Positions 1 to 23,175 are shown, counted from the first letter of the stretch. The stretch is 64,000 nucleotides of DNA from Candidatus Sumerlaeota bacterium (GCA_020848155.1 JADLAR010000003.1:3089-67088), one strand, 5' to 3'. Numbers and translations are program-made. Notes: a model not told the origin generated them from the letters alone.

Positions 1-2352
1 ATCCAGAATCGCCTTGGCTTTCAGCATCTTGGGCAGGTGAGGCAATTGTGCGAAGGCGCCGGAGAGATCCTTAACTCGCCGTGAGGTCTCCCCCTCTCGC
101 CACAAGTCGTATGGCCCATCGGGCAATAAAGCTTCTGCGGATATGGACGAATCTTGAACCCGCGACCGATCATCATTCTTGATGATCATGAAGTGGGCTT
201 CTTCGGTCACATTGATCTTGAAAGCCTGAGCCTCATTCTTCTCGGAAACTGTCACCACCGTGCAGTAAGCCTGTCTAACGGCTTCAGGGATTTTTTTTCT
301 CGCCTTGTCTATATTCATGCCAAGCGTGCTCATACGTGCAACGTCCAGCTGCCCGTCCTTCTGTTGCTGTTTCAGATCCACTTCAACCTGTTCCCAAGCC
401 AGATACTCACGAACCGCTGCCGAGGCGACCTCGACGCCGTCCCTGGATGGTGCGAGCAGGATCAAGGCATTGCGGTAGACACGGGGCTTGTCGGAACTCG
501 TTGTTTCATCGAGGTAGCGCTTCGCCTCCGCGCTCGGCTTTCCGGAATCGCTCGCTGCGTTCGGCCCAAGCACCGCGTAATGAAACAAACCATCGTCTTC
601 GATATCTTTGGGCTTCGTGGGGAGCATATGAACCCGCACACCAAGCGCATTTGCACCTTCGGAAAGCTTCTTCGTTCTCTGGATTTCGTCCAGGAGTCGT
701 ACTTTCACAACATCGTCGTTGATACGCGATGCCGCGACGGCGTGCATCTGCGTCAGGTTCGGACGATTGCCAAGCCGCCAGGTCTCTGGCACTTGATTGC
801 CCTCTCCTGAAGTATATTGATCATCCAGCCAAAAACTCACCTGCGCCCATTGTGAGAGTCCCTTCTCCAACTCGATCTTGTCCGGTCGGCTGGGAGCGAT
901 CAGCACCGTCAGATCGCGCAGCTTCGCACTCTGGCCGATGGGTTGGGAGTGCAGGAAAGTCGCCGCGATAGCTTGTTCGATCTCGCGGAACTTCAGGCCG
1001 ACAGAATCACGCTGTATATCTCGCCCGCGCTGCAGTTCTCCCTCGATGACGCCCGTCCATGCCTGACGTTTTCCCTCATGCTCTTCTGTATCTGCCACCG
1101 TCACCAACTCGCGCATCGCCTCGGAAAGCCCATCCTTGCCTTTTTGCGTTAGAAAAACGCACGGCCCCACCAGCGGGCTCTCGTCCCACTTCGCCGCCTC
1201 CCGCAACGCCAGCGCGAAGGTCCGCAACACGCCACGCGTTCGCTGAAAGCGATCAAGCTGCGTCCATTTCGCATAGAACACTTCGGTCAGGTCGGGATGG
1301 AACGGATAACTCTTGAGGAAGCGCTCCTCCGCATCAGCGCCTTGCTTTCGTGTTTGCTCGTCCAGGTCACAAACACCCTTGAGAGCAGCCTGCACATGCG
1401 AACGGAACGCATCGCGATCTTTGATCGACTCGGGAGTAAAAAACCGCCGGCGCAGAACTTCCGCCACATCTTCCTTCACTACCGGCTCCACAGCCTCTTC
1501 GCGTTGGCGCTGGAAAATATCGTAGAGCGCGCCTTGCAACTCCCGGCCAAAGGAATCGCTCTTTGACGGGTCGCTGGCGAGCAACGAGGCAACGATGCAG
1601 CATCGATCGACTTTCGTGGCAGCCTGCGTCAGGTACTGGAAGAAATTGATCATCCGATCCTTCCACTTCGCATCGGCCGCGACCTTCTCCCGCACGTACA
1701 TCAGCACTTCGTCGATCAGGATCAGAACGCCCAGTCCCTGCTTCTGCGGCATCTCCAGCAACGCCGTCAGAAGGTTCTCCGCTGGCGCCGAATCCCGCTC
1801 CTCCGCTTTGCCATCTGCGTGCAGCAGTTTGAGCCCGTCTTCTCCGGCTATCTGCCATGCGAGAACGCTCCAGGGCTGCTTCAATGTTCTGACGGCCCCG
1901 CTTGGATCGCGGACCTCCATGCCTTTCTCGACATCAAGCTTGTCGAAGCAAAGACCCGCCACGCGCGCTGCCGGCGGTTCCTGTCCGATTGCCTGCTCAA
2001 ACTCGGCCACGGATGGCAGCTTGGGAAGATTCGCCGGATTGGTGACCAAATGCCGGAGCGTAATCAGCGTGTGCGTCTTGCCGCCGCCGTAGGTCAACTC
2101 CAGCTGGCGCACCGCCTTGTCGTTCTTCCCCGCCAGGCGCCGCATCACGTCGCGCACAAGTTGCCGCAGGTTGTAGGTCGGAAAGGTCAGAGCGAAGAAC
2201 TTCTCCGGATCCTCGTAAATCGGCCGCTTCCCCCCCTGCATCAGGACCTCGTACAGATCGGCCGCGAACATGTGCATCGGCAGCTCGCCCGACTTCAGGT
2301 CGTCGCGCAGCCCGACCACTTCGTGCCATGGTTTCCAAGGTGTCTTCGCCAT
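1..2352 (-). CDS. DUF499-family ATPase (BrxC/PglY-like; 'anti-phage-associated DUF499'). Only the N-terminal ~784 aa are in the window; the gene runs off the window start.
   Basis: Uninterrupted minus-strand frame from ATG at 2352 to position 1. It is absent from the ORF track because there is no stop in the window. N-terminus MAKTPWKPWHEVVGLRDDL..FAADLYEV..EDPEKFF..TYNLRQL and Walker A LTYGGGKTHTLITL match the DUF499 hallmark. The start overlaps the SIR2 stop as TAATG. Confidence 0.7.
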   Translation of the reverse strand, partial: MAKTPWKPWHEVVGLRDDLKSGELPMHMFAADLYEVLMQGGKRPIYEDPEKFFALTFPTYNLRQLVRDVMRRLAGKNDKAVRQLELTYGGGKTHTLITLRHLVTNPANLPKLPSVAEFEQAIGQEPPAARVAGLCFDKLDVEKGMEVRDPSGAVRTLKQPWSVLAWQIAGEDGLKLLHADGKAEERDSAPAENLLTALLEMPQKQGLGVLILIDEVLMYVREKVAADAKWKDRMINFFQYLTQAATKVDRCCIVASLLASDPSKSDSFGRELQGALYDIFQRQREEAVEPVVKEDVAEVLRRRFFTPESIKDRDAFRSHVQAALKGVCDLDEQTRKQGADAEERFLKSYPFHPDLTEVFYAKWTQLDRFQRTRGVLRTFALALREAAKWDESPLVGPCVFLTQKGKDGLSEAMRELVTVADTEEHEGKRQAWTGVIEGELQRGRDIQRDSVGLKFREIEQAIAATFLHSQPIGQSAKLRDLTVLIAPSRPDKIELEKGLSQWAQVSFWLDDQYTSGEGNQVPETWRLGNRPNLTQMHAVAASRINDDVVKVRLLDEIQRTKKLSEGANALGVRVHMLPTKPKDIEDDGLFHYAVLGPNAASDSGKPSAEAKRYLDETTSSDKPRVYRNALILLAPSRDGVEVASAAVREYLAWEQVEVDLKQQQKDGQLDVARMSTLGMNIDKARKKIPEAVRQAYCTVVTVSEKNEAQAFKINVTEEAHFMIIKNDDRSRVQDSSISAEALLPDGPYDLWREGETSRRVKDLSGAFAQLPHLPKMLKAKAILD

Positions 2353-3455
2353 TACAGGACCTTTCCAGTTTCTTGCGGGGATTCGATTTCTTCAAATGGA
2401 GATACGTCGCTGGGAAATACTTTAGCGAGCTCGATGATCGTGAGGTGATGCGTCAAAAATTCTTTTGCTCCCAGTGGCATGCATGCGACTCGACTCGAAT
2501 CTGAAAGGCCGAGCACACGGAGGATACGATTCGTCTCCTCCGCTTTCCGCTCTTCATTCACCGGACCAATAACGGCAAGTACCCTCATGGTTGGATTGTT
2601 CTTAAGAGCCTGAGCCATGATCCCGTTAATATGATCGTCATAGAACCCATACCCAATTGCTACAATGAGCCGAGCCGAATCCAAAGTCCATCGGCGGAAT
2701 TGGTACGCCAGGAACAGAAAAGGATCCACGTACTGGAGTTTGTATGTGGTTCCGAATATGATCGAAAGCTGGTCATGGTGGATGTTGTTGTAGCCATCCC
2801 TGTAGGTTACTCTTCCGTCTGTGCCCTTCTCCCAATCAACGGAGCCATGAAGCTTGTACAGGAATATGGCAGGCTCTTCGACAGGCTCGAACATGCGCCA
2901 GTCCCAACATTTGTCGCCATCAAAGCCCCTTCCGATGGCAGAGTGAGCGCAGGCAATTTCCACACACCGATCGTAGTTCAGGGAGAAAACACGTAGCGGA
3001 TGTTCATACTCTTTCGCAAAATCCGTTAGTCGCGCGTAATACTGCGCGTCTTCATTATGGTTAAGTGTCACCCATTCACGAAGCTTCTTGACGATCAACT
3101 CCCGAAACAAATGGACGCGGGCAAGGTTTGGCCCGGCTACCTCTGTGAGCTTAGGCGACCAGGCACCAATGAACGGATAGAGCGGATGGTCGTCGCCCTT
3201 TCGCAGGTCGTCCAAAGTGGATACTAGGCGCTCAATGTTGAAGCCACTGACAAAATGCCCCCGTATTCCATCTGAGTAAATAATCGCACTCTTCACATAG
3301 TTGTAGAGATGAAGAAAGTCCTTCCACTCTTTATCATTCTGGAGCAGGCACTCCAACTTCTGGACCATTGAAACAGAATGTGGAATGCCCGCGTCTACGC
3401 TAGCCCCGGCGCCGAGGAGGATCAGAATCTCGTCTCTCTTGAACACAGTCGCCAT
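2352..3455 (-). CDS. SIR2-family protein (defence-type NADase-like effector), stand-alone, no APAZ
   Basis: Rossmann motif ILLGAGASVDAGIP, FSLNYD and LYKLHGS motifs of defence SIR2 (ThsA/DSR/pAgo-associated type). The track ORF is 2352..3515. The internal ATG at 3455 (MATVFKRDE) is preferred: it is preceded by AGGAG and lies 10 nt after the pAgo stop. Confidence 0.75.
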   Translation of the reverse strand: MATVFKRDEILILLGAGASVDAGIPHSVSMVQKLECLLQNDKEWKDFLHLYNYVKSAIIYSDGIRGHFVSGFNIERLVSTLDDLRKGDDHPLYPFIGAWSPKLTEVAGPNLARVHLFRELIVKKLREWVTLNHNEDAQYYARLTDFAKEYEHPLRVFSLNYDRCVEIACAHSAIGRGFDGDKCWDWRMFEPVEEPAIFLYKLHGSVDWEKGTDGRVTYRDGYNNIHHDQLSIIFGTTYKLQYVDPFLFLAYQFRRWTLDSARLIVAIGYGFYDDHINGIMAQALKNNPTMRVLAVIGPVNEERKAEETNRILRVLGLSDSSRVACMPLGAKEFLTHHLTIIELAKVFPSDVSPFEEIESPQETGKVL

Positions 3456-3465
3456 TTTCGCGCTC

Positions 3466-5424
3466 CTATAGGAACCAGGGGGGCATATTTTCGATCTCAA
3501 TCTCGGACAAACCAAGCTGATCGAAATGGCCTATGTACCTGGAAATAAGCTGGGCATAGTAGACGGAAACTGGTGCAGACTTCGCATTGAAGCCACGCCA
3601 ATTAGCTCCGGACAAGTTTACGGCGTCTTGCAAAAAACCGACCTCATCATCCTTCTCCAAACCGCTATTGGAATAGGTGAATTCAACATGCATCGGTCGC
3701 GCGATACGGCGAGTGACTTTGGGGTTATGATACTGGAGTCCTTCGAACCAGACCAAGTACTCGCCGCGCCCCAAGCGAACGAACGTGCTCTCAAAGGGCG
3801 TTTTGCTATTGTTCCAAAGGGCAAACCCTAGGTACTTATCCGTGTCATTAAACTTCATCGCAACCAGTCGTTTTCCGTTGGCAGAGCCTTCAGAAAACTT
3901 AGCTAGAGCACGATGGACTTGATCTAGCTCGTCTCGGCGCAATGCGAATGGGGTATGGATGACGAAGGTGCGGTAGGCTTCCTCGTGCTCATGGAGCACC
4001 CCTAGAACCCCATCAAGCAATGTTTTTAGATACTCGCCTCTATTCTCACTATGTGCGACGACCCTGATCGTTTCATAGAGACCACTTGAGTCCGTAAGCA
4101 CGGAATAGGCGAAATATTTCGAAATCTTCCCCTCCCCATCCTTTCGATGCGCCTGACCTAGACCTACAATTAGGCAGGACTCATTCCTCGGTTCCACTTT
4201 CCAAGGCTTACCTCCAAGTTTTCCGAATGCAGCCAGAGCAATGTTCGCAACCGACCACTTGAAGGTATTGGCGTTCTTCAGCTTCTCGACGCTCACCAAC
4301 TGCGTCGGTAAGCGATTCTTCAGGTAGGTATGCTTGAGTCTGAAATAGGCTTTCTGGCCTTCGGGATCTTCGCTTTCACGGCTCCATGGAAAGAGAACTA
4401 TCGGCAAAACGGTCTCGCTTCCCGCCTCCTCCTTCAGCCTGCCCAGATCGTGCTGGAGAGCCTGAATAGAGAAGCCGGAGACGGCGAGACCTTTAACGTT
4501 TTCTTTTTCCAGCTTCAGACCAAACATCCGTTCCATTCCCGGGAAGGTATGGTATTTCTCGCCTCTCAGCGCGAAATAGAGATCGTGTGCCAGCGGCTTG
4601 TCCTCCGGCCGGTACAGGAAGCAGATGCTAGAAGCTCCCTCGGGGGCTTGGAAAGGTCCAGAAGTTTTCAGTCCCTGAAACTGAGAGGTTGACCGCTTCC
4701 CATTCCCGAGGACGTATGTCTTGGATTCGAGATGCCTCGAAGAAAGGCCCTCCGAGGGCCATTGTACGTCAAGGCTGAGGAATTCACTAACTTCGAGAGG
4801 AAAAAGTTTGGGCTTGTATATACGTAGAAATGACTCGCATTTAAGAAGATGGTCAGCATAGAAGTCGGTATTCTCCCTCCCCTCCCTGTTCAGACTCAGG
4901 CTTCGTTTGAGGGTCTCGCGAGAAACAACATCCATCTTGTTTCGGAAATGGAACCCCATCAAGAAACCGAACTGCTGCTTGGAGCTAAGGTAGAAGGGTT
5001 CAAGCCAGACCTGATCAACCCCCAATTCATCGTCTCGCATCACGAAGTCAATTGTGCGTCGAAAGCACTTGGGATCGGTCCGATACTCATCGGCATTCAG
5101 GACCGCTTGAACTCGCTTGAGCAGGAGGTTGAATAAGAACTGGATAGTAAGCTGAATCTTTGTCCGTGGCGCAGCATCGAAGGGCTCGAATCCCTTCATT
5201 GGGTCGAAGGAGATATCGAAGTCAACTCTTCCAGCCTCCTCTTCGCCGAGCCCGACAGGTAAGGAGTATCTCCTCAATCCCTCTCTCCGCATAGCATCAA
5301 GGGCGCTTCCCGGCTCGCTTCGCCGACGATACACCCGGACAGCGAATTCCTGCGGATCGCACGCGAGGAAATTCAGCGTGATTGGTTTATCCCGGTTCGC
5401 GTTTGTGGGCGGTTCGCTGATCAT
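3466..5424 (-). CDS. Prokaryotic Argonaute, long-B-like (MID-PIWI core with ~250-aa N-terminal region), catalytically inactive
   Basis: MID 5'-phosphate pocket pattern Y-x3-K..Q (AYFRLKHTYLKNRLPTQ). PIWI G-x-D-V slot reads LIVGLGQAHRK, so the Asp is absent. C-terminal PVSVYYAQLISRYIGHF is the PIWI tail signature. The track ORF starts at 5481 inside the upstream gene. The ATG at 5424 (MISEPP) with GAAGGG 9 nt upstream is preferred; 5433 is also possible. Confidence 0.7.
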   Translation of the reverse strand: MISEPPTNANRDKPITLNFLACDPQEFAVRVYRRRSEPGSALDAMRREGLRRYSLPVGLGEEEAGRVDFDISFDPMKGFEPFDAAPRTKIQLTIQFLFNLLLKRVQAVLNADEYRTDPKCFRRTIDFVMRDDELGVDQVWLEPFYLSSKQQFGFLMGFHFRNKMDVVSRETLKRSLSLNREGRENTDFYADHLLKCESFLRIYKPKLFPLEVSEFLSLDVQWPSEGLSSRHLESKTYVLGNGKRSTSQFQGLKTSGPFQAPEGASSICFLYRPEDKPLAHDLYFALRGEKYHTFPGMERMFGLKLEKENVKGLAVSGFSIQALQHDLGRLKEEAGSETVLPIVLFPWSRESEDPEGQKAYFRLKHTYLKNRLPTQLVSVEKLKNANTFKWSVANIALAAFGKLGGKPWKVEPRNESCLIVGLGQAHRKDGEGKISKYFAYSVLTDSSGLYETIRVVAHSENRGEYLKTLLDGVLGVLHEHEEAYRTFVIHTPFALRRDELDQVHRALAKFSEGSANGKRLVAMKFNDTDKYLGFALWNNSKTPFESTFVRLGRGEYLVWFEGLQYHNPKVTRRIARPMHVEFTYSNSGLEKDDEVGFLQDAVNLSGANWRGFNAKSAPVSVYYAQLISRYIGHFDQLGLSEIEIENMPPWFL

Positions 5425-5440
5425 CGTCCGCATCCCTTCA

Positions 5441-8400
5441 TTACTCGTCTCCCTTCTCTTCCTTCGGCAAAAAACTCGCATCCTGCACTGTCGCGCCCTT
5501 GGCGCGCACGTGGTTGCTGAGGCTTTCCAGGAGCGCGCGTTCCTCGCTGCCGGCGTCGGCCAACTCGATCAGCGACTGCACCAGCCGAATGAATAGCTCC
5601 TGGCGGCGGAGGCCGTGTTCGTCCAGGTATTCGTCCACCTTATGCACGTCCCCGGCACGCCATAAATGCATCAATCGGTGTATGCGGTCAATCAGGGGGA
5701 TCGGGCGGCCGCTGGGAGCCTCGTAACCCATCGAGGAACGCTTGCGCTGGGCCCAGGTCTTCAGCTTGAGCTTCCCGCCCGAATCCCCGCTATCGTCGGG
5801 ATCCGCCTCGGCATCCGGATCGGCGTCGTCCTCATCGTCATCATCCGCGGCGGCCTTGCTTCCCGTGTGCGAGACCAGGTCCCAAGCCGAGTCAAGGTCG
5901 CGATCTGACAAACCGCACGCTGTGGCATAGAGAATACACGCGCCGGCAGGAGCCTCTGCCAATCCGAAGTCGTGACGATGCAGAAGGTAATAGGCCGTCG
6001 GGGAATCCATGCGATCCGCCGCCGCCAGGTCTGATCCTTCGCCCTCGCCCGTCAGCACTTGGCCCACCACGAAGTCCACCACCATGCGCCGCACGAGGGA
6101 GAGAAACTCGCCCACACCGAGAACTTCGTTCGGCGTGTTCGCCTTTTTCACAATGGGGTGCTTGCTGTACGCTTCCAGCGCAGGACCCGTCGCCGACCAG
6201 ACAAAGTCCGGCCCGCGAATACCTGCATCCCAGAACTCGCGCAACCGATCACCGATCTTTGCCCGCATCTCTTCCAGTACCTTGTTGTCCCAGCCGGGAC
6301 GAGCAGTCGCAGGGCGTTTCTTGCAGACGAGCCAGACGGAGGAAGAGAGAGCGGCGGAGTTCATCCCTCGCATGCGATTCCCCATCTCCGTCTGAATAGG
6401 CCAACTTCCATCAACAATAAACCCCGCGCGGATGATCGCCGAAACCAGCGTCTCCCAAGCATTGGGGTGCTTGTGTGCGAAAACGATGACAAGGCGCCCA
6501 TCGGTCGTGAGAGACTTTTCGCAAGCTATGAAGGCCCTCGCCATGCCGTCTTCATAGGATTGCTTGGACGCCTTGGAATCGCCGCCATGACGACTGTCAT
6601 CGTCAATTAGTTCGCCGTCATTCGCATCATGATCCCATTTGGGAGAGGTCTCGCCCAATAGGAAGGCACCGTTCTCCAGCGGGGTCCTGCTGACGAATCG
6701 CTTGATCCAGACATAGAAAAAGTCCATGAGGTCAGAGTATGGGATCGCATCGTAATAGGGCGGGTCGGTGACAATACAGTCATACTGATGGTCGCTCATT
6801 TTGATAGCACTGTGATTTAGCGCTTTGGGAGTGGGTGAGGCTATCGAAGCTTGCATAATGTGCTCCCATGCTTCGCACAACCACTCAAGGTTTGAAAGGT
6901 AGTTTCCGGTAGTTTGGGAGATGGGATTTCCTTCACAGTAGTCCCAAATGATTGGTAGGGCAAACCTCGTAAATGTTCCTTGAAGGTTATCCCGCGTATT
7001 ATCCCATCGGCAAATTGAAGATTGCCTATCAGCGATTCGGTCCATTCCCACTGCAAGACCAGCATAGATTGCTTCTGTCCATGTGTGATCATAGCCTCTG
7101 GAAGTCAGTTCGCCCAGCGACGTCCTGCTGGATCGCAAGACCATTCCCAGCGTCTGTAACTGCCTATCTGTGAAAACATCGCGCCACTTCATCAAACCAT
7201 ACCCTTGGATTGAAAACGCCCGCGCAGCACCTCTACCTCCACCAGCCGGGGTCGGTTCCTCTGGACGACCGAACGGAATACTTGAGTAGACGTGATCTAT
7301 TGTCTTCTTGGCTCTGAGAGCGCACTTGACTTCGTGTTCAGTGGCTACCCGATACCCTTTACCAGAAGGACCTTCGACCACAACGGCTGTGGCAACCGCA
7401 GATAAATGGCCGCTTTTGCCCTCTACGCGAATATCTTCCATCGTCATAATGGTCTGGCAGCACGGGCACTGCACGCCTGCACGGGACATCGTTCCAGCCG
7501 ATATACGTTTATCATGCTCTCGTTTCTGCGCAGCGTTGCCTCCCTGCGCAGGGACGTTGTCCTGGATGCCGAACTCGACGCCGGTGCCATCGGCTTTGGG
7601 CTTCATGATCAGCAGGACGCGCTTGTTGTCCTTCTTGCAGAGCCAGCGCGTCTTGAGCAGCGGCACCTCGGCGCGGCAATTCTTGCACTTGACCGTCCGC
7701 GCCCACAAATAGGCCACCGTCGGTTTCGCCACCCATCGCGGGTTGCGTTTGGACTTCAGATATTCTGCTGTGAACTCGCCGTTGAGGGCCTCGATATCCG
7801 GTGTGCCATTCTCCTTCAGAGGGACCAGCCGCATCTCCTGCCGCTCGTAGGGCGATTTGTCTTTGAGATCAAGCCGCTCGAAATCCGCATAGGTGGGGTA
7901 ATAAGGGGCCAGTTCCTTGCGGGCCTCGTTGAGCACCCACCGCCCCCAGGCGCGCACATGCCAGGCGAGGTCCGCCCGGGGCGCGCGGCCTGCGTCTATA
8001 CGTTCCTTCTCAAAGAGATCGCCGGTGGCCTCCTCCTCCTGCTTTTTCGTGCGCTTAGTGCGACCGACCAGATGCGGGTGCGCCTTGTAGAAAGACTCCA
8101 TAAACTCCTCGTCCTCCAGAATGAAGTCGGGGAGCGGGTGCGTCTTGCCGGCGAGTTTCTGAGGATACTCCAGCGTGCATTTGAGGATGAACCAGGCGAC
8201 CGGGTTGATGTCCACCGCGGTGGCTTCGCAGCCAAGGCGCATGGCCTCCAGCGGAATCGCCCCACCGCCGGCAAAGGGATCAAGCACGCGCGGGGCGCGT
8301 CCGCCGTAGGCCTTGCGAATCTCCTCGCGAAAGAAGGCCAACTCCTTCTCGCGCTGGGCGACGGCGGCCTGGTGCTCCGCGATCTTCTTTTTCCCGCCAG

Positions 8401-9823
8401 ACTTCGGCTCCGTGCCGATCCAGCCCAGGATGCCGCCCTCGACCTCTTCCTTCACGCGCTCGACGATGCGCCCGTTGGGCATCTTCTTGCGCTCGACTGA
8501 CTGAACGACCTTCCCGCCAATGCGCTCGCAGAGTTCCTTGCGCGCCTCCGGCGTCCCCGGATCCGGCAGCAGCGTGGCGAGCAACGCCGCCCGACAAGCC
8601 GCCAACGGCCGCCGCGCCGGCCAGATGTGAAGAGTCGATATATGCCCATGGCGCACATTCTTCTCATGCACGGATGTAAGCGATGCCTGCTTGAGAGGGA
8701 AGGCACGTTCGATCAGGCGGGGGGTGTCGGGGGCTTGCTTTGTCAATTCTCGGGGCTCCGATTCTACTGATCGTTTGTTTGTTCGCTCTTCCGGTTTTTT
8801 CTCAATCTGCGACACTTCTTGGTGTTTTTGTTCAATGCCTTCTGGCTCTCTAATGGGACGCAAGGGTACTCCCAATGCTTCCCAGTTCAATTCCATCGTC
8901 TCCTTGTTCAGGCCGATGGGCTCTGCACCCGCACTTCTCAGAGCAGAGAATATCCCATTGGAAAGTTCTGAAAATCGTAGAAAGTGTACATCTCGTCTCG
9001 GGATCTCAAACAAATCTCCAGCGAATCTATCCAAAATCTTATCGTCCCGGCAAACAACGAGGCTTCGTATCCTTTCTCCCATCGTGTCGTTGATATGGGA
9101 TTTCAATCTTGGAGCGAAGCTCCTGGCATCTGACTTCTCAAGACGAACTCCGAAGCTTTCTAGCTGCCGCAGGAGACCCGATGTCGCTGAGGCTAGTTTT
9201 CTTGAAGGTGTTGTATAGACAAGATCGATTTGAGAAGGGATTTCGCTCCCGAGCCGTTTTAGAAGCGAATGGAGGGTATCGTGTTCTTTGTTTCCATCTA
9301 TACGGTAAACGAAGAGCGTCAATGCCCACGCTTTCTCATTCTGGCTGCGATCGAATTCATGCACACCGACAGAATGAGGTGGAAAAACAAGAACTGTGGT
9401 CTCCAGATCTCCGAGCCATTCTTCGATAAGTTTGCTTACCACATTCCAATCAAGCCCGCCGTTGCCGCAACCGAGAGCTGGAACTGTGATGGACTTGATA
9501 TTCTCATTAAGAAGAAAGCTTCTTAGCCAGCGAAGTCCCTTCAGTATATACGAATAAGTTGAGGGGCGTTTCCAGTCTGTTTTTGTCGGCAGATTGACGA
9601 TGATCGGTGTATCGGATAGCAGGTCATCGGACTTCCAGACGTGGGCTCGACCCGGCCGCACCTCGTCAGCCTTGCAGGCTTCAGCATAGCTCTTGTACAT
9701 CTCCGGGTATCGCTTCTTGAACAACAAGGCGATTCCCTTCCCCATGACGCCAACACAGTTCACGGTGTTCACGCGGGCCTGAGCCTCATGCTCGAACATG
9801 TCGCCGGTGACGTACTTGATCAT
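5441..9823 (-). CDS. DarG-like macro domain protein fused to DUF1156 N6-adenine DNA methyltransferase (1460 aa)
   Basis: N-terminus has VNTVNCVGVMGKGIALLFKKRYPEMY and PALGCGNGGLDW, a DarG/TARG1-type macro domain, plus ~200 aa more. From ~aa 365, TPRLIERAFPLKQ..RHGHISTLHIWPARRP is the DUF1156 N-terminal hallmark. MTase motif I DPFAGGGAIPLEA and motif IV TDPPYYDAIPY are present. Confidence 0.8.
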   Translation of the reverse strand: MIKYVTGDMFEHEAQARVNTVNCVGVMGKGIALLFKKRYPEMYKSYAEACKADEVRPGRAHVWKSDDLLSDTPIIVNLPTKTDWKRPSTYSYILKGLRWLRSFLLNENIKSITVPALGCGNGGLDWNVVSKLIEEWLGDLETTVLVFPPHSVGVHEFDRSQNEKAWALTLFVYRIDGNKEHDTLHSLLKRLGSEIPSQIDLVYTTPSRKLASATSGLLRQLESFGVRLEKSDARSFAPRLKSHINDTMGERIRSLVVCRDDKILDRFAGDLFEIPRRDVHFLRFSELSNGIFSALRSAGAEPIGLNKETMELNWEALGVPLRPIREPEGIEQKHQEVSQIEKKPEERTNKRSVESEPRELTKQAPDTPRLIERAFPLKQASLTSVHEKNVRHGHISTLHIWPARRPLAACRAALLATLLPDPGTPEARKELCERIGGKVVQSVERKKMPNGRIVERVKEEVEGGILGWIGTEPKSGGKKKIAEHQAAVAQREKELAFFREEIRKAYGGRAPRVLDPFAGGGAIPLEAMRLGCEATAVDINPVAWFILKCTLEYPQKLAGKTHPLPDFILEDEEFMESFYKAHPHLVGRTKRTKKQEEEATGDLFEKERIDAGRAPRADLAWHVRAWGRWVLNEARKELAPYYPTYADFERLDLKDKSPYERQEMRLVPLKENGTPDIEALNGEFTAEYLKSKRNPRWVAKPTVAYLWARTVKCKNCRAEVPLLKTRWLCKKDNKRVLLIMKPKADGTGVEFGIQDNVPAQGGNAAQKREHDKRISAGTMSRAGVQCPCCQTIMTMEDIRVEGKSGHLSAVATAVVVEGPSGKGYRVATEHEVKCALRAKKTIDHVYSSIPFGRPEEPTPAGGGRGAARAFSIQGYGLMKWRDVFTDRQLQTLGMVLRSSRTSLGELTSRGYDHTWTEAIYAGLAVGMDRIADRQSSICRWDNTRDNLQGTFTRFALPIIWDYCEGNPISQTTGNYLSNLEWLCEAWEHIMQASIASPTPKALNHSAIKMSDHQYDCIVTDPPYYDAIPYSDLMDFFYVWIKRFVSRTPLENGAFLLGETSPKWDHDANDGELIDDDSRHGGDSKASKQSYEDGMARAFIACEKSLTTDGRLVIVFAHKHPNAWETLVSAIIRAGFIVDGSWPIQTEMGNRMRGMNSAALSSSVWLVCKKRPATARPGWDNKVLEEMRAKIGDRLREFWDAGIRGPDFVWSATGPALEAYSKHPIVKKANTPNEVLGVGEFLSLVRRMVVDFVVGQVLTGEGEGSDLAAADRMDSPTAYYLLHRHDFGLAEAPAGACILYATACGLSDRDLDSAWDLVSHTGSKAAADDDDEDDADPDAEADPDDSGDSGGKLKLKTWAQRKRSSMGYEAPSGRPIPLIDRIHRLMHLWRAGDVHKVDEYLDEHGLRRQELFIRLVQSLIELADAGSEERALLESLSNHVRAKGATVQDASFLPKEEKGDE
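8640..8736 (-). repeat. Direct repeat copy 1 (fusion junction inside the macro-DUF1156 gene)
   Basis: See copy 2. The junction sits where QAPD-TPRLIERAFP in the fusion corresponds to M-TD-TPRLIERAFP in the relic. Confidence 0.6.
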
Positions 9824-9826
9824 CGT

Positions 9827-11140
9827 CTATACTCCATCATGGCCACGCGCGAGCTGGAGGATACTCTCGATTCTAGCGTGATCGTACCATAGTGGATTGA
9901 CTGCAAGGATATCGGCTTCGGAGAGAGCTGCCAGCATTTGGAGAGTGTTCTCGTTTCGGGCAATAGGTGCGAGTTCTTGGACACGTCGACCACCTCCGCA
10001 AAGATCTCCAATCAGATCATGATAGCAAACCAAGGTCAGAACTGCGACAGCCTCGTCCCGGGTTATATCGGGTAGGTTGTTTAGCAACTCAACGCAGCTG
10101 GGAAGGGCCTGTATCGGATGATCCGTGTCTTTCTTGTATTTCCCATCCTTCCTATTTCTACCGTTCGGAATCCCTTTGCCTACGTCGTGAAGGTACGCCG
10201 CAAGTTTGGTGAGTTTCTTTTCTCTTGCTGATAGAGCCACGTAGCGAGGGCGCTTCTTGAGCTGTTCAACTACCTGAAGCGTGTGTTGACCTACATCTCC
10301 ATGAATTTCATCCTGTAGCCCACATAAGGCCCCTGTAAGTGGATGGTTAGCTAGATCAGCCTTCAATTGCTTTAGCAAGTCGTCCAACGGAGATAGTGTG
10401 CAGCCTGTTCCCTTGCTGGCAGCTATTTGGCGAACCGCCTTGGTTAGTTCCAACTGTATTGCCTTAGGACCACTTACTATAGATCGCTTTGCCCCTTCGG
10501 AGGCGTAAAATGGTGTTATGAAATGGTGTGAATCATACTCTGTTTTTATGTTGATGTTCTGAGCCGCGAGATACCGTTGCACCTGGTCCGCGATCGCTTT
10601 GTTCCAGACTACTATGCTATCAATGGTTGCAAGAGGTACGGAGCCGTGAATGAGGAACTCTGCCATCCTTTTATGCCTTTGAACCTCATTCTTTAGCGAC
10701 CACTTTTGAAGCTCTATGCATTCCCAGTCCAAATTCGCCAGCGAATGTGGGGAATTGTAGAAGGTAGGGGGTATATTCGTATTTGCCGAGGCATCCGAGA
10801 AAACATAGGGATAACTAATCGCATCGCGCAGTTTGACGCGCAGGAAAATAAGGAGCTGCTGATCTGCCACCCTCCTAAACACCACTCCTGTAAACATGTC
10901 TGTGAGCTTCGCAAAATAAAAGGGAACGTAATTATGCACCACTCCACCTGGGCCACAAGTCACCCTCGTATTGGCCCTCCTCGCCTGAATTCCTTCGTAC
11001 GCTACGTCGTAATGGATGAGCCCACGGCTGAGCTTTTGTTGTGTTGAGAGCAAACCGCCTTGGGACAGGATCGATGGCAGATTATCCAAATGAGTAAAGT
11101 GGTACACCATTCTGTCTTGGTGTATAGCAGGCAGTGTCAT
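9827..11140 (-). CDS. darT: DarT (DUF4433) ssDNA thymidine ADP-ribosyltransferase fused to C-terminal HD phosphohydrolase domain
   Basis: MVYHFTHLDNLPSILSQGGLLS, VVHNYVPFYF and RMAEFLIHGSVPLATIDSIVVWN match the DarT catalytic core. The C-terminal half has H..(30)..YLHDVGKG..DHP..CYHDLIGD, an HD motif set. The stop lies 3 nt before the macro-MTase start. Confidence 0.72.
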   Translation of the reverse strand: MTLPAIHQDRMVYHFTHLDNLPSILSQGGLLSTQQKLSRGLIHYDVAYEGIQARRANTRVTCGPGGVVHNYVPFYFAKLTDMFTGVVFRRVADQQLLIFLRVKLRDAISYPYVFSDASANTNIPPTFYNSPHSLANLDWECIELQKWSLKNEVQRHKRMAEFLIHGSVPLATIDSIVVWNKAIADQVQRYLAAQNINIKTEYDSHHFITPFYASEGAKRSIVSGPKAIQLELTKAVRQIAASKGTGCTLSPLDDLLKQLKADLANHPLTGALCGLQDEIHGDVGQHTLQVVEQLKKRPRYVALSAREKKLTKLAAYLHDVGKGIPNGRNRKDGKYKKDTDHPIQALPSCVELLNNLPDITRDEAVAVLTLVCYHDLIGDLCGGGRRVQELAPIARNENTLQMLAALSEADILAVNPLWYDHARIESILQLARGHDGV

Positions 11141-11973
11141 GATGGCATCCTTTCCTGGAGCTTGCGTAGCAGCAAGTCCCCGACAATTCCCATTACCTGT
11201 GTAGCGTGCCTCGCTTCTTCCGAGGTTACACTAGGAAGCCACGGATGGCCATGCCCGGTCCCTTGCTTATTGCGCAAGGTGTTGATCGCGCATGCCGCCT
11301 CATAGAGCGCGCGTTGCAATCGCTGTTGAGGTGTGCCGGAGGTTGCCGGATTGTCGGCCGATGTCTTCAGATCCAGCGCTGCGAAGGCTTGACCAAGGAG
11401 CGTGGGGAAGTTGTGGGGCGGATTGTTGTTATTCCATACTTCCACAAGGACATGCGCCGCGATTGCCTCAAGGAGATCCTTACCTGTGCCAACCACCAAT
11501 GCGGCATCCTCAGACCCCCTCTGGGCTCTTCGCACGTAGGCGCCTAGTGCCTCAGTCAACTCCGTTCCGACGAGACTATCCAAAACGGCGGGCTGAATAT
11601 GACCATCTGGAGACAGGATGAATCCTTCTGCAGAAAGGACGTCGCGGAACGCCTGAATCTCTTCGCTTCCCACATAGTGCGCAGATTCCGGGCGGAACCC
11701 ACCGCATGACCGAACCATCGCGATCAGACGATCGACAAAGTCGCGGCCCCCTTCGAAGGAGTTCTCAATTGCCCACGAAAGGATAAGCCGAACGCGCTTC
11801 GCTTTGCCGACGGTCTGACCGCTCTGCTTCGGATCGCCGCGCTCAAGCCCTGAGGAGGTGACGCAGAACTCAATGTCCGAATGGCTTGGATCACGTCGCT
11901 CCTTTTGTGCGTCGTCAACTAATCGAGCCAATGCGTAAATGATAGCATCAGTCAGAGGTGGCTTGGTCCTCAT
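11137..11973 (-). CDS. Abi_C / HEPN-like abortive-infection-type protein (278 aa)
   Basis: C-terminal LRNKQGTGHGHPW is an R-N-x6-H motif of the HEPN/Abi_C type. ATGA overlaps at both ends. Confidence 0.5.
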   Translation of the reverse strand: MRTKPPLTDAIIYALARLVDDAQKERRDPSHSDIEFCVTSSGLERGDPKQSGQTVGKAKRVRLILSWAIENSFEGGRDFVDRLIAMVRSCGGFRPESAHYVGSEEIQAFRDVLSAEGFILSPDGHIQPAVLDSLVGTELTEALGAYVRRAQRGSEDAALVVGTGKDLLEAIAAHVLVEVWNNNNPPHNFPTLLGQAFAALDLKTSADNPATSGTPQQRLQRALYEAACAINTLRNKQGTGHGHPWLPSVTSEEARHATQVMGIVGDLLLRKLQERMPS

Positions 11974-12284
11974 GCTGCTCCTCCTAACTGAGCCATGACT
12001 TCATCGACAGACATGGACCTGCCATTTTGGAGCGTTCGGCCACCCTGCCATTCTCGACCTCGGGCTCGTTGGTTCGCGTCCCACTCTGAGTATTTCTGAA
12101 CAGTCGGACCAGAAACATGATAGAGACATCCTGCAACAATTTCGCCGGAGAAGCTGCCTCGCCGCGCGAGCCAGATATGCAGCGTCGAAATATGCCCATA
12201 CCGCACATTCCTCTCGTGCGCGGGGGTCAGTGATACCTGCTTGAGAGGAAAGGCGCGTTCGATAAGGCGGGGGGTGTCGGTCAT
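11970..12284 (-). pseudogene. Relic 5' end of a DUF1156 methyltransferase gene. First ~32 codons are conserved, the rest is unrelated. It may still be translated as a 104-aa peptide.
   Basis: MTDTPRLIERAFPLKQVSLTPAHERNVRYGHISTLHIW matches aa ~363-400 of the 1460-aa fusion protein. About 100 nt (12183..12280) is ~85% identical to 8640..8736. Confidence 0.6.
12183..12280 (-). repeat. Direct repeat copy 2 (ancestral DUF1156 start region)
   Basis: Aligned by eye to 8640..8736, ~85% identity over ~100 nt. Confidence 0.6.
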
Positions 12285-12292
12285 GAGCTATA

Positions 12293-13738
12293 TTACCTTT
12301 TCACAATTCGTTGGTATTCGGAGTCTGTACCTAGACGTCCCATCGCATTCGGTGGAAAGGAAATTATCTTATCCAAGCCCCGATTAATTTCTGTATTAAC
12401 TGCTTGGGTTTTTATGCGTGTAGCCAGCGCGGCGTATTCTTGACCGCACGAAGTGCTTTGCAATCGACTCAAAAATTCTCGGTCGTATGGCAATCGAGTG
12501 AAGATCCGAATGTGACGATCTTGCCACTTCGAGATCAATTCATCGTAAAAGGGGACGGCTGCATTTGACACCCCATATCCGTTTCCAATTCTGCAAAGCG
12601 TTAAAACCTTCACGTACTTTGCTTCGACGCTGTGGGGGACGGCGCCATTGGCTGGAATTAGGCGAGACAATGCTCTTGCTGGAGCAACTTCGCGAGAGAA
12701 GTTACTCCAGCCTTGGTGGGCCGAATAAAGGGAATCCACAGCGGTACCGATTTCGACGGCGAGGGTCTCTGCTGGCAGAAAGCTAAGGCCGTCAACAAGG
12801 TCCAGAAACTCCCGAATCAGTTTTGCGCGTGCCACATCTCCGTTAGCGGCGAGGGTCGCTTGCTTCAGCCCTGCTTCATACTTGGCATCATCTGGTGCTG
12901 CCCCCCAAAGCCCAGCTGCAATCAACTTTATGTTATTCCGTACGTGTGCATCCAAACTCGGGTCTCCGTACATTCCGGCGATCGCCCTCGACAACGAAAT
13001 CAGCAATTCATCCGGAAGGAGCTTTATCGCTTCAATTATCGCTGGAGTATCACTTGAACTGAAGGTGTTTTCTCGGATGTTCTTCAACAACCGCCGGACC
13101 TCAAGTGCGGGACCGACCGGGTCTTTCGCCAACACCTCCTTTACGCAGGTCTCCAGCCAACTCACCAATTGAAGTCCAGAGAGATCGTTTTGATTAGGGT
13201 GGGCCGCGCTCGCATGGTTTCGCATGGAGCGAATATAGTCCAGATGGCGGTAACCAATGTCCGTGATGATACCTGCTTCCATGGACCCTTTGATCAGCTC
13301 CCAGTCCTCGATCTTCGCCAAATCCTCAGGAGTTCGTAGTTTCGACCTTCGCGCTGGATCTGTGACAACCGTGCTGAAGAAGTAGTCGAGATCAAACCGC
13401 GTGACCTTGTCGCGTATACTCCGAACCGTTTCATCCCACAAATAGTTCAGAGCAGCATCGAAGAGACCGATGCCACATGCAGCGACGAACTTAGACAGAT
13501 ACATGGCACTCTGCTTCTGTTCGTCGTTCAGAAGAGCAACGACGTCAGGAAGGTTGTTGATCACCTTGCGGCGTTCCGATTGTTCCACGAGAACTGCTTC
13601 TGAGGGCACACCTAGATAATCCAGGTAAGTGGTAAGCCCCGAAGCAAACTGTGCCAAGGATTCAGAGACTGCATCTGGATTCGAAGGGATTATATCAGCC
13701 ATCGCTTGTTGTCGCTCCGTGAGAGGATATTCATGCAA
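12293..13738 (-). CDS. Hypothetical protein (481 aa) with HEPN-like R-x6-H motif
   Basis: DYIRSMRNHASAAHPN resembles the motif in the 278-aa Abi_C-like ORF. No other domain recognised. Tight coupling to neighbours. Confidence 0.4.
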   Translation of the reverse strand: MHEYPLTERQQAMADIIPSNPDAVSESLAQFASGLTTYLDYLGVPSEAVLVEQSERRKVINNLPDVVALLNDEQKQSAMYLSKFVAACGIGLFDAALNYLWDETVRSIRDKVTRFDLDYFFSTVVTDPARRSKLRTPEDLAKIEDWELIKGSMEAGIITDIGYRHLDYIRSMRNHASAAHPNQNDLSGLQLVSWLETCVKEVLAKDPVGPALEVRRLLKNIRENTFSSSDTPAIIEAIKLLPDELLISLSRAIAGMYGDPSLDAHVRNNIKLIAAGLWGAAPDDAKYEAGLKQATLAANGDVARAKLIREFLDLVDGLSFLPAETLAVEIGTAVDSLYSAHQGWSNFSREVAPARALSRLIPANGAVPHSVEAKYVKVLTLCRIGNGYGVSNAAVPFYDELISKWQDRHIRIFTRLPYDREFLSRLQSTSCGQEYAALATRIKTQAVNTEINRGLDKIISFPPNAMGRLGTDSEYQRIVKR

Positions 13739-14996
13739 AATACTCCTGATCTAAAGGCAGGAACCCAAACACGAGCCCGCCGGTAGTATAGAAAAGGTGG
13801 CCCTGAAGCGTGAAATGCGTGTATCCGCCACGCTCTGTTCTTCTGAAGGAGGGGTTTACGTTTTTCTTGAACTCCTTCTGAAAGCGACCATTTGGAACAA
13901 CGCATCGAACTTTCTGAAAAACTCTGCGACGTTTCATGATGAAGGAGGCTATCGGATCGAAATCTTGCTTGGCGAGCATGGGCAGTAAGCCACCATTAAT
14001 ACCAATGAACAAACACGCCTCTTTACTTAGGGCGAAAACCTGCCCTCCGGCACTATCGTCGTCTGTATGCGACTTATTTGCGAACCACGCCAGCCCACCC
14101 GATGCTCCGCGGATGTCGAAACCCTCTCCATCCCCTCTCAATAATCCAACGCTATCCAACTGAAAAGGGTCTGAAAGTTCCTGGAGCGCAGAGACACGAG
14201 TTTGCAGCGATGCTGAAAAAGGGGATCGAGGGCTGATGAAAGAAATCAGGTCTCTCAGGTTCTCAAGTCGAGCTAAGAGCCTAAAGTCTTCGGGGTTCGT
14301 ATCTTCGGTGAGCGGTGGGTCGAGGAGCCAGCATTTCGGCCTTGTGCCCTTGCGTCCGTCTAGCGCGACGATTGTTCCATACCTAACACCATTAGCGGGG
14401 GCAGGGTTAGCTTTCTTTTTTTTGCGGATATCAGAAGCGTGAGAATATACACTCCCACGGTCCTTCTTCCTATTATCAGCGCACGACGTACCTTTATTTT
14501 CAACTTCAATGATAAATTCGCCCGAACTAGCTGCAAGAGAGTAGCTATAGTCTAGGGTCTTCGTCTTTCGTTCTTCTATTGGGCTCCAGTCGACCGATGT
14601 AAGCCGGTGAATTTTTGAAATCAGGGCCAGACCTATTGCTTCACCGAGTCTTTCGGAGGTTCCTCTATCTGTCCCTCTGGGAGCGATGACTCGAAGAGCT
14701 CCTTCTTCAATTTCAATTAGCCCGTCCCAGTCGAAGAGCGTATGTTTTGCCTTTTTCTCTAGTATTTCAGCGAAGCTGAGGTAACCCGGAGCGCCTTGCT
14801 TCCGCTTGAGAAACTGTGAATAGACAAGAACTTCATCCGTTGGAACCTCAATCTGTCCCGGGATCTGAATCTTGTCTAAGTACTCTTTAGCAGCAGAGAC
14901 CTTCAGGGCGTCTTGATCTGCCCTATTGTAGTAATCAACGTATACTTTGAGGGTGTCAGGTAGGGTTCCAGTAAATAGAGCTTCGGCTAGAGCCAT
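13731..14996 (-). CDS. Hypothetical protein (421 aa), no recognisable domain
   Basis: Long ORF in operon context, AT-rich. Only a weak D..(E)xK-like FIIEVENKG motif. An 8-nt overlap with the next gene, and 1 nt after the helicase stop. Confidence 0.4.
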   Translation of the reverse strand: MALAEALFTGTLPDTLKVYVDYYNRADQDALKVSAAKEYLDKIQIPGQIEVPTDEVLVYSQFLKRKQGAPGYLSFAEILEKKAKHTLFDWDGLIEIEEGALRVIAPRGTDRGTSERLGEAIGLALISKIHRLTSVDWSPIEERKTKTLDYSYSLAASSGEFIIEVENKGTSCADNRKKDRGSVYSHASDIRKKKKANPAPANGVRYGTIVALDGRKGTRPKCWLLDPPLTEDTNPEDFRLLARLENLRDLISFISPRSPFSASLQTRVSALQELSDPFQLDSVGLLRGDGEGFDIRGASGGLAWFANKSHTDDDSAGGQVFALSKEACLFIGINGGLLPMLAKQDFDPIASFIMKRRRVFQKVRCVVPNGRFQKEFKKNVNPSFRRTERGGYTHFTLQGHLFYTTGGLVFGFLPLDQEYFA

Positions 14997-14997
14997 A

Positions 14998-18606: not shown

Positions 18607-18647
18607 AGCCAGTGCGTTGCTCCCGGCGTTTCAGTCTTGCGAGAGTG

Positions 18648-18676
18648 GATATAGCGTTTGTTATACCATGCGTCAA
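18648..18676 (-). promoter_or_regulatory. Candidate sigma70-type promoter for the defence operon
   Basis: Minus strand TTGACG, 17-nt spacer, TATATC, ~38 nt upstream of the helicase ATG. By eye only. Confidence 0.25.
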
Positions 18677-18976
18677 GTCCCCACGCGATTAGCCGCGGCA
18701 AACGTCCAATCCCCTTATTCGGATGCCGGTTCAGCATCGCCTTCCGCAGGAATGTGCACCGAGTTCATTTTGGAGCCTCCTTGGAGTCCAGCCAAGACAC
18801 GATAGCCTGAGGCCGATCACCTGCTCCGCCCTAAATCGTGCCCCACATATGCCCCACGGAGGGCGGGAAATGGGGTGAAAACGCGGGAAATCAGCCAGCG
18901 AAGTAAAGACGTAAGATGAGCATTATGAGCACTATAGGGAAATGGCGGGAAGGCCCTGAGCCGATTGCCAAGGTGG

Positions 18977-19009
18977 AGGTCGCGAGTTCGAGCCTCGTGT
19001 CCCGCTCCA
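18977..19009 (+). other. tRNA 3'-end fragment (T-arm + acceptor 3' strand + CCA), probable integration-site (att) remnant
   Basis: GCGAG-TTCGAGC-CTCGT forms a 5-bp T-stem with a canonical TPsiC-like loop. It is followed by GTCCCGC-T-CCA. Upstream sequence cannot form D or anticodon arms, so this is not a complete tRNA. Confidence 0.35.
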
Positions 19010-19219
19010 TTCAAGTTTAGCGGAATCAGGATTCTGGCCCCGGCTTCGGTCGGGGCCTTCTTCTTGTTCGCCGCTTCGGTCAACTACGGGTCAACAAAAC
19101 AACCGGCTCTCTCCTACTCTTTCGCGAGGGTGTTCGGCGGATACGAAGAAACCCCCGGAGGTTGTTCCGGGGGTGAACGTGGTTCGGGGGTGACTGAAGG
19201 GGCCAACGTGGTTGGCGGG

Positions 19220-23174: not shown

Positions 23175-23175
23175 C

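Follow-up and report, generated by a model that had tools for sequence, protein, structure and literature searches.

A DarG-type macro domain fused to the HmaB methyltransferase of an Hma locus, with a DarT-HD gene directly upstream

Why is the antidote of a DNA-modifying toxin joined to the methyltransferase by which a defence system marks its own DNA, and how often has such a fusion arisen? The question is raised by a 64-kb window (64,000 nucleotides, nt) from a metagenome-assembled genome (MAG) of Candidatus Sumerlaeota (GCA_020848155.1, JADLAR010000003.1:3089-67088). The minus strand of the window possesses a gene for a DarT-type toxin with a C-terminal HD domain (DarT-HD), followed by a single open reading frame (ORF), macro::HmaB, in which a DarG-type macro domain precedes HmaB, the adenine methyltransferase of an Hma system. 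Both ORFs, of 437 and 1460 amino acids (aa), were found exactly as called in an earlier note on this DNA, and the 3-nt coupling between them was read as TAG-ACG-ATG. Comparison with other loci and proteins (designated by L and P numbers) indicates that the arrangement is not confined to the window: antidotes of three unrelated folds are predicted to have been joined independently to the N-terminus of HmaB, each time with the cognate toxin gene coupled directly upstream.

The fused gene and its upstream toxin

The N-terminal half of DarT-HD matched Pfam PF14487 over aa 13-205 (E 2.6e-42; 145.3 bits against a gathering score, GA, of 22.5), NCBIfam toxin_DarT NF048013 (151.6 bits against a cut-off of 150) and PADLOC DarT (2.4e-47). 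The structure of Thermus DarT (7omv, a chain of the E160A mutant) matched with an E of 1e-24, and E161 of DarT-HD was aligned to its position 160, which is the catalytic E160 of the Thermus enzyme. Y13, H17, R55, H69, Y71 and E161 were invariant among 16 aligned homologues. The C-terminal half scored 21.7 bits with Pfam HD, marginally below the gathering score of 22, and its weak NCBIfam matches to the HD region of GlnD agree with this assignment. It has the complete H…HD…H…HD…D ligand set (H286, H318-D319, H341, H374-D375 and D410), which is invariant in 16 to 69 homologues, and its predicted fold has a local confidence (pLDDT) of 92.6. Profile matches and ligand residues together bear out the DarT (DUF4433) and HD domains which the earlier note had read from this ORF. 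DarT-HD is predicted to be a thymidine-type ADP-ribosyltransferase of single-stranded DNA (ssDNA) with all catalytic residues kept, together with an intact HD phosphohydrolase.

The N-terminus of the fusion matched Pfam Macro over aa 18-132 (5.7e-16), PADLOC DarG over aa 1-163 (2.6e-64) and NF048014 (1.3e-66), and it aligned to the DarG macro domain of M. tuberculosis (5m3i) with an E of 7e-36. The catalytic lysine of the PTK motif (K81) and both glycine loops are conserved, and the pLDDT of the domain is above 94. The motifs VNTVNCVGVMGKGIA, PALGCGNGGLDW, DPFAGGG and DPPY are readable in the translation of the fusion. By these matches the domain is classified as DarG-type, as had been proposed, and it would remove ADP-ribose from DNA.

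A whole DarG antitoxin, which had also been claimed for this N-terminus, was not found; the macro domain is the only DarG part of it. The canonical C-terminal, DarT-binding domain of DarG was not found in the fusion by PADLOC and NCBIfam profiles, PDB sequence search, hhalign or AlphaFold. The DarG profiles cover only their macro half (positions 1-154 of 338 and 1-159 of 329), and NF048014, in which the canonical C-terminal domain corresponds to positions about 160-338, gave 225 bits, under its cut-off of 250. The best relatives of the fusion N-terminus are proteins of ~380 aa which combine a macro domain with a DprA/SLOG-like Rossmann domain (PF02481, TIGR00732). Only aa ~253-313 of the fusion align to this second domain, in a weak and partial match (hhalign 66%, E 5.7e-5), and the AlphaFold model of aa 154-330 shows alternating β/α elements at low confidence. 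Because of the partial match and the low-confidence model, the α/β domain at aa 156-330 is judged, with low confidence, to be a decayed DprA/SLOG-like second antitoxin domain. The following region, aa 328-404, is disordered in the AlphaFold model (pLDDT below 50).

The remaining part of the fusion matched DUF1156 (PF06634, 5.7e-18, aa 374-424) and PADLOC HmaB (6.6e-116, aa 369-1253). The motif I for S-adenosylmethionine (SAM) binding, DPFAGGG, and the motif IV, DPPY, were read directly in it, so that the DUF1156 adenine methyltransferase of the earlier note is recovered here as HmaB. For both proteins the E-values and ORF lengths lie far outside what chance would give.

As the window comes from a MAG and other fused loci carry frameshifts, the fusion might be an artefact of assembly or annotation, in which macro and methyltransferase parts are separate genes brought together by mis-assembly or by a missed frameshift near 8728. 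The locus L003, from an independent assembly and an unrelated sequencing run of another sample, decides this point. It has the order HmaA–DarT-HD (438 aa)–macro::HmaB (1462 aa)–HmaC, and its fusion is 67% identical to that of the window, collinear, and in frame across a divergent linker. Macro and DUF1156 also occur in one ORF in P0280, P0391, P0018 and P0002, and the frameshifts of the other loci lie downstream of the junction and not at it. The artefact was thus rejected as effectively refuted, and its probability is regarded as close to nil; the earlier note's suspicion of an assembly-made fusion is answered by these intact ORFs.

Conservation between the window and L003 is uneven along the protein. 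The N-terminus of DUF1156 is the most conserved segment with 94% identity, the macro domain has 66%, the α/β domain has 23-50% and the linker has 21%. The linker of L003 keeps the ancestral hmaB methionine (…PMTDKPRLIERAF) while that of the window reads …APDTPRLIERAF, in which the methionine is gone. Since the ancestral start codon has been lost, the HmaB of the window would be produced only as an obligate fusion. The fusion looks like the result of stop-codon loss between an antitoxin gene and hmaB.

Recurrence of the fusions and pairing of DarT-HD

Macro and DUF1156 within a single ORF were found in P0280 (1359 aa), P0391, P0018, P0002 and P0044. Four of these (P0002, P0018, P0044 and P0391) were obtained from a search of 5.8 billion proteins and represent a lower bound, as the window protein, the L003 protein and P0280 were missed though present in that collection. 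L001 and L005 encode macro-SLOG::HmaB with a DarT-HD gene directly upstream, and in L070, where the upstream ORF is cut, DarT-HD probably stands in the same position. In all loci compared, the gap between toxin and fusion is −4 to +7 nt and the genes are translationally coupled.

The HmaBs closest to that of the window (64% identity, e.g. P0241) are unfused and without the 368-aa extension, while the fused P0280 is only 36% identical. In a rough neighbour-joining tree, read together with the identities, the macro fusions fell into two or more HmaB clades far apart from each other, each with unfused proteins around them. With free DarGs the macro domain of the window shares 58-60% identity, versus 47% with the macro domains of other fusions. 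A metagenome scan with the linker and DUF1156 region gave 80 loci of the window's HmaB subclade without a fused gene, and since about 76 such loci are all unfused, the fusion is considered rare.

An exhaustive search of representatives distinguished three kinds of N-terminally extended HmaB. The first is macro+SLOG::HmaB with DarT-HD upstream, as in P0280. The second is NADAR::HmaB (P0258 and P0362), each with a gene for PRTase-CE (PF24390) directly upstream; these fusions fall in two further HmaB clades, again nested among unfused members of the same tree. The third is DprA-like::HmaB (P0384 and P0385), and the N-terminus of P0384 matched the PsyrA and ShosA antitoxins (2.5e-60 and 2.4e-39). 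At the locus of P0384, L006 (GCA_007859755.1), the PsyrA/ShosA-like::HmaB gene at 9279..14092 lies between HmaA and DUF499, and an upstream gene of 241 aa, which overlaps the fusion by 4 nt, matched the PsyrT/ShosT toxins. The NADAR::HmaB genes with PRTase-CE upstream lie inside Hma loci, at L004 (8956..13762) and L007 (2..3786).

A few fused loci have further peculiarities. The fused gene of L001 loses its frame within eight consecutive G (11800..11815), exactly at the SAM-binding motif DPFAGGG, giving a macro-SLOG-DUF1156 protein of 623 aa and a separate methyltransferase ORF of 745 aa. The methyltransferase may be phase-variable, or the homopolymer may have been misread in sequencing; no such G run was found in the window. 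The fused gene of L070 is also split, at about 3606, into 851 and 547 aa. L001 possesses in addition a free protein of 183 aa (7955..8506), whose match to the DarG profile (2.7e-8) is restricted to the C-terminal half, which binds DarT. Its gene is situated just upstream of DarT-HD and adjoins an HD/HD_assoc_2 dGTPase-like gene. ORFs of 183 aa occupy the equivalent position in L068 (6081..6632) and L069 (5510..6061), two loci with no DarT gene and with the fusion truncated at 478 aa.

DarT-HD itself is widespread. Homologues formed 365 clusters at E ≤ 1e-5, and the best 120 of the 365 are full length, about 440-460 aa, from many phyla; they include proteins of Klebsiella, Yersinia, Deinococcus and Desulfosarcina, and some sources already label them DarT/HD proteins. 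Pairing was compared in 54 loci (L008-L061), with at least 10 DarT-HD loci from a genome scan. A free macro+SLOG antitoxin lies directly downstream in 8 of 8 scorable DarT-HD loci (species-representative genomes, among the loci listed). For DarT genes without HD, 39 of 44 pair with a macro protein, or adjacent split ORFs, having the canonical C-terminal domain, and the SLOG type was seen in 0 of 44. This strict co-variation of HD with DprA/SLOG separates two DarTG2-like subtypes, and DarT-HD with macro-DprA/SLOG appears to be a widespread and apparently uncharacterised one. Three candidates for a canonical DarTG embedded in Hma (L022, L032 and L047) were rejected as divergently oriented neighbours.

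The same co-variation bears on the HD domain, for which phosphodiesterase activity is probable. Its strict association with a DprA/SLOG-like domain in the partner antitoxin favours hydrolysis of either the ADP-ribose adduct or a nucleotide; the domain may alternatively be regulatory. The pair of ADP-ribosyltransferase and phosphodiesterase domains in SidE is a precedent for the processing of an ADP-ribose adduct.

Pairing also bears on what the macro domain is for. It might not be a DarT antidote at all and might instead shield the Hma complex, by removing ADP-ribose which a phage has put on HmaB or its partners; phages do turn ADP-ribosyltransferases on host proteins, and ADP-ribosylation of proteins is reversible by macro domains (PMC9503650). 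The specific match to DarG argues against such a shield, as does the translationally coupled DarT-HD gene which precedes the fusion in the window, L001, L003 and L005, while L068 and L069, without DarT-HD, are truncated. The free homologues, too, are partners of DarT-HD in every scorable locus listed. A shielding role is therefore held to be highly improbable.

For both the DarT-HD subtype and the antidote::HmaB fusions no description was found in the literature, and an earlier mention of either is possible. Recent literature names other DarTG variants, namely DarTG1 with NADAR and DarHTG with DarG3. No literature was found on PRTase-CE or on its pairing with NADAR::HmaB, and fusions of the DarT, macro, NADAR or ShosA type are unmentioned in the Hma papers PMC12839542 and PMC11232893. 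The earlier note had considered both joinings, of writer to HD and of eraser to methyltransferase, to be undescribed. DarT-HD, widespread and annotated in databases, is no one-off joining; the second joining was not found described in the literature.

The Hma operon, its cargo and its history

The genes of the window which surround the fusion are packed tightly in one minus-strand array, as established by ORF calls, family scans and comparison with related loci (Table 1). The earlier note had described the context as similar to RM or BREX (bacteriophage exclusion) systems, which can be given more exactly: HmaA, HmaB and HmaC are all there in the canonical order, and by this content the locus is assigned to Hma, a Type-1 DUF499-centred BREX-related (Type-1 BR), RM-like system. 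HmaA matched PADLOC HmaA (2.1e-153) and Pfam SNF2-rel_dom, Helicase_C, NOV_C (5.9e-17) and HTH_3 (2e-8), is 75% identical to HmaA of L003 and is the predicted restriction effector of the system. HmaC was recognised by tblastn and Pfam alone, with 83% identity to aa 1-784 of L003 HmaC and a match to DUF499 (PF04465, 3.3e-18). In the RM-like model of a 2026 comparative study of Type-1 BR systems the ATPase senses, the methyltransferase marks self DNA and the helicase-nuclease restricts (PMC12839542), and defence dependent on the HmaA nuclease has been demonstrated in Halomonas (PMC11232893).

Table 1. Genes and domains of the minus-strand array, in positions of the window
Feature	Position	Strand	Description
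HmaA	18606..14998	−	1202 aa; HTH_3-type N-terminus, SNF2 helicase, C-terminal NOV_C (PD-(D/E)XK) nuclease
orf421	14996..13731	−	421 aa; cargo ORF between HmaA and hmaB scar, family not assigned
orf481	13738..12293	−	481 aa; cargo ORF, 8-nt overlap with orf421, family not assigned
DUF1156 fragment (hmaB scar)	12284..11970	−	104 aa; Pfam DUF1156 2.6e-7, PADLOC HmaB 9.5e-9
Abi_C-domain protein	11973..11137	−	278 aa; Pfam Abi_C 8.4e-12
DarT-HD	11140..9827	−	437 aa; NCBI MCC6545649.1 "DUF4433 domain-containing protein"
DarT domain of DarT-HD	10511..11140	−	aa 1-210; DarT2-type, predicted ssDNA thymidine ADP-ribosyltransferase
HD phosphohydrolase domain of DarT-HD	9827..10333	−	about aa 270-437
macro::HmaB fusion	9823..5441	−	1460 aa; NCBI MCC6545648.1 "DUF1156 domain-containing protein"
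DarG-type macro domain	9359..9823	−	fusion aa 1-155; predicted ADP-ribosyl-thymidine glycohydrolase, antidote
Degenerate α/β domain	8834..9358	−	fusion aa 156-330; probable remnant of DprA/SLOG-like antitoxin domain
Linker, charged and disordered	8720..8833	−	fusion aa 331-368; between antidote and methyltransferase
HmaB part	5441..8719	−	fusion aa 369-1460; DUF1156 N-terminal domain and predicted N6-adenine DNA methyltransferase
Prokaryotic Argonaute	5481..3466	−	671 aa; PADLOC pAgo_II 5.2e-194, Pfam Piwi 2.1e-11; between HmaB and HmaC
SIR2 protein	3515..2352	−	387 aa; PADLOC Aga_SIR2 1e-120, Pfam SIR2_2 1.5e-10; Argonaute-associated
HmaC, DUF499 ATPase	2352..1	−	N-terminal 783 aa only; gene exceeds window edge

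Hma operons are hotspots of insertion, and about two thirds of them carry inserted defence genes such as Septu, PARIS and Ppl (PMC11232893). In the window the DarTG-type module is assigned to the cargo slot between hmaA and hmaB. The same slot holds the Abi_C gene, whose stop overlaps the start of DarT-HD by 4 nt. Of about 76 metagenome loci, 8 have an Abi_C homologue in this position (L084, L092, L104, L107, L123, L133, L134 and L136), so the protein is a recurrent accessory of Hma. For the other two cargo ORFs of this slot, orf421 and orf481, searches of Pfam, PADLOC and NCBIfam yielded nothing down to the permissive threshold of E ≤ 1, and homologues were absent from the approximately 150 loci fetched. 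In L067, whose HmaB (P0241) is the closest unfused relative of the window HmaB at 64% identity, the slot is occupied by a complete type II cyclic-oligonucleotide-based anti-phage signalling system (CBASS) with SAVED effector, SMODS cyclase, Cap2 and Cap3 (2837..7820). Between hmaB and hmaC the window carries an Argonaute–SIR2 pair, which we take to resemble long-B Argonaute–SIR2 systems, and a pair of this kind occupies the same position in L125 and L127 (2 of about 76 metagenome loci).

The 104-aa ORF gives a view on the history of the locus. Codons 1-42 (12284..12159) correspond to the beginning of an hmaB without fusion, M-TDTPRLIERAFPLKQ…HIWLARR; at the nt level they are 84% identical to the stretch 8719..8599 within the fusion, and L003 gives 82%. 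The ORF is read as a recombination scar, and the presence of an unfused hmaB start in it implies that a resident hmaB would have been truncated when a block of Abi_C–DarT-HD–macro::HmaB recombined in. The incoming block perhaps also held the Argonaute–SIR2–HmaC genes. The N-terminus of DUF1156, with the high conservation given above, could have served as the recombination handle.

Several other features of the window were recorded. An Xre/MqsA-antitoxin-like helix-turn-helix (HTH) is situated at the N-terminus of HmaA (aa 9-59, 18430..18580, −; the HTH_3 match of 2e-8), which suggests possible autoregulation of the operon. A promoter and terminator scan of 1..19500 gave nothing exceeding the shuffled expectation, and a tRNA scan of the window found none. 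Upstream of the island, 21093..24474 (+) encodes a DEAD/Helicase_C helicase of 693 aa and a bona fide DprA of 448 aa with a C-terminal HTH (PF02481, 5.4e-37), a pair which is probably housekeeping and unrelated to the fusion.

Functional readings and comparison with known systems

The arrangement suggests an abortive-infection backup guarded by the methyltransferase, in which DarT-HD would be freed when a phage hits HmaB. In the uninfected cell DarT-HD and macro::HmaB would be co-translated, and the macro domain would erase any ADP-ribosyl-thymidine. Hma would serve as the first line, restricting unmethylated DNA. A phage might neutralise HmaB or its complex, sequester it or make it unstable, or might shut off host expression; the antidote would be lost along with HmaB, and the freed DarT-HD would then ADP-ribosylate ssDNA at replication forks, so that phage replication stops. 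We consider this mechanism slightly more probable than its opposite, at about an even chance. That the fusion ties control of DNA ADP-ribosylation to the self-marking enzyme, as the earlier note had proposed, is plausible, and the idea is strengthened by the recurrent independent fusions.

The main rival is a neutral fusion by adjacency, according to which a DarT-HD/DarG pair landed beside hmaB and a stop codon was lost, with DarTG and Hma continuing to work independently. A number of observations weigh against the guarded backup, and most of them speak for such neutrality. The cargo slots take unrelated systems (CBASS in L067; Abi_C, SIR2 and Argonaute–SIR2; Septu, PARIS and Ppl in PMC11232893). 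As the antitoxin comes second in a toxin–antitoxin pair, it would often adjoin hmaB and could fuse with it by simple loss of a stop codon, and the ancestral hmaB methionine is still present inside the L003 linker. The linker is long and disordered in the model, which suggests that the two halves may act independently. The fusions are rare, and only one of ten DarT-HD genome loci among those listed lies in Hma. Frameshifts or truncations have hit a number of fused loci (L001, L070 and L068/L069), an argument against strong selection on all of them. In the window the second antitoxin domain is seemingly decayed, and the trigger of DarTG-type defence is not established even for standard systems. 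Neutrality is opposed by the repeated origin of the fusions: five or more lineages acquired one independently, three unrelated antidote folds are involved, and in every case the antidote stands at the N-terminus of HmaB with its own toxin encoded upstream. The loss of the internal start in the window, which makes HmaB obligately fused, and the catalytic residues kept intact in every domain point the same way. A neutral origin is possible and is judged rather unlikely.

The backup mechanism can be extended beyond DarTG. HmaB might be a guarded hub to which antidotes of at least three unrelated families have been fused, so that a phage disabling HmaB would free whichever cognate toxin is coupled to it, with the HD domain trimming the ADP-ribose adduct in the case of DarT-HD. 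This wider proposal is held as doubtful. If it is true, the HD product, e.g. phosphoribosyl-thymidine, would be resistant to macro-type erasers encoded by phages.

The tether itself permits another explanation, in which the macro domain acts in cis. Joined to a sequence-specific methyltransferase which scans DNA, it would clear ADP-ribose preferentially from the host DNA scanned or marked by HmaB, and ADP-ribose left only on foreign unmethylated DNA would be part of the signal for restriction; crosstalk with methylation has already been raised for DarTG in type I RM operons (PMC5179494). DarT, however, targets short motifs in ssDNA whereas the methyltransferase targets sites in double-stranded DNA. 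Free DarG, moreover, protects the genome untethered in most of the DarT-HD loci listed. Such a cis-acting eraser is improbable.

Two questions have been open since 2016, namely why DarTG and other toxin–antidote modules occur in RM operons and what sets DarT free in an infected cell. In the window one polypeptide unites the antidote with the self-marking enzyme, and the recurrence of this design with three antidote folds offers a genetic handle and an experimental route. The fusions let one ask whether RM-like systems are guarded by abortive-infection toxins. DNA ADP-ribosylation may gain a second chemical step through the HD domain, which would matter for genome-editing tools built on DarT and for phages that counter the defence with mimics of macro-type antitoxins.

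Among known systems, DarTG2 of Thermus, M. tuberculosis and E. coli shares with the window the DarT catalytic residues, a DarG-type macro domain and a toxin gene directly upstream. Reversible ADP-ribosylation of thymidine in ssDNA, described for DarTG (PMC5179494), is expected here as well. Unlike DarTG2, the toxin of the window has an extra, intact HD phosphohydrolase domain, and its antidote is without the canonical DarT-binding C-terminal domain and forms part of a methyltransferase of 1460 aa. The pairing of DarT-HD with macro+DprA-SLOG never mixes with the canonical pairing in the 54 loci. With Hma and other Type-1 BR systems the locus has in common the three core genes, their canonical order, the defining domains and embedded defence cargo, and it differs in the 368-aa N-terminal antidote extension of HmaB. 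A DarTG module embedded in an RM-type operon was already reported in 2016 for type I RM systems, where the module was considered as possibly interacting with methylation or stabilising the operon (PMC5179494); there the genes are separate, whereas in the window the antidote is covalently joined to a BREX-related methyltransferase.

ShosTA/PsyrTA, with a phosphoribosyltransferase (PRTase) toxin and a DprA-like antitoxin, is not present in the window and has another toxin chemistry. The ShosA/PsyrA-like::HmaB of L006, with its toxin upstream, nevertheless has the same design as the window, and its DprA-like domain resembles the second domain of the antitoxins which partner DarT-HD. A parallel in logic is the anticodon nuclease PrrC, which is kept silent within the EcoprrI type Ic RM operon and is freed when a phage anti-restriction factor hits the RM proteins, as proposed here for DarT-HD and macro::HmaB. 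PrrC differs in that it is silenced by protein–protein contact with no fusion, and in that its target is RNA. Set beside these systems, DarTG, Hma and the presence of DarT-HD in databases were known already, and what is new is the fusion of antidote domains from three toxin–antidote families to the N-terminus of HmaB.

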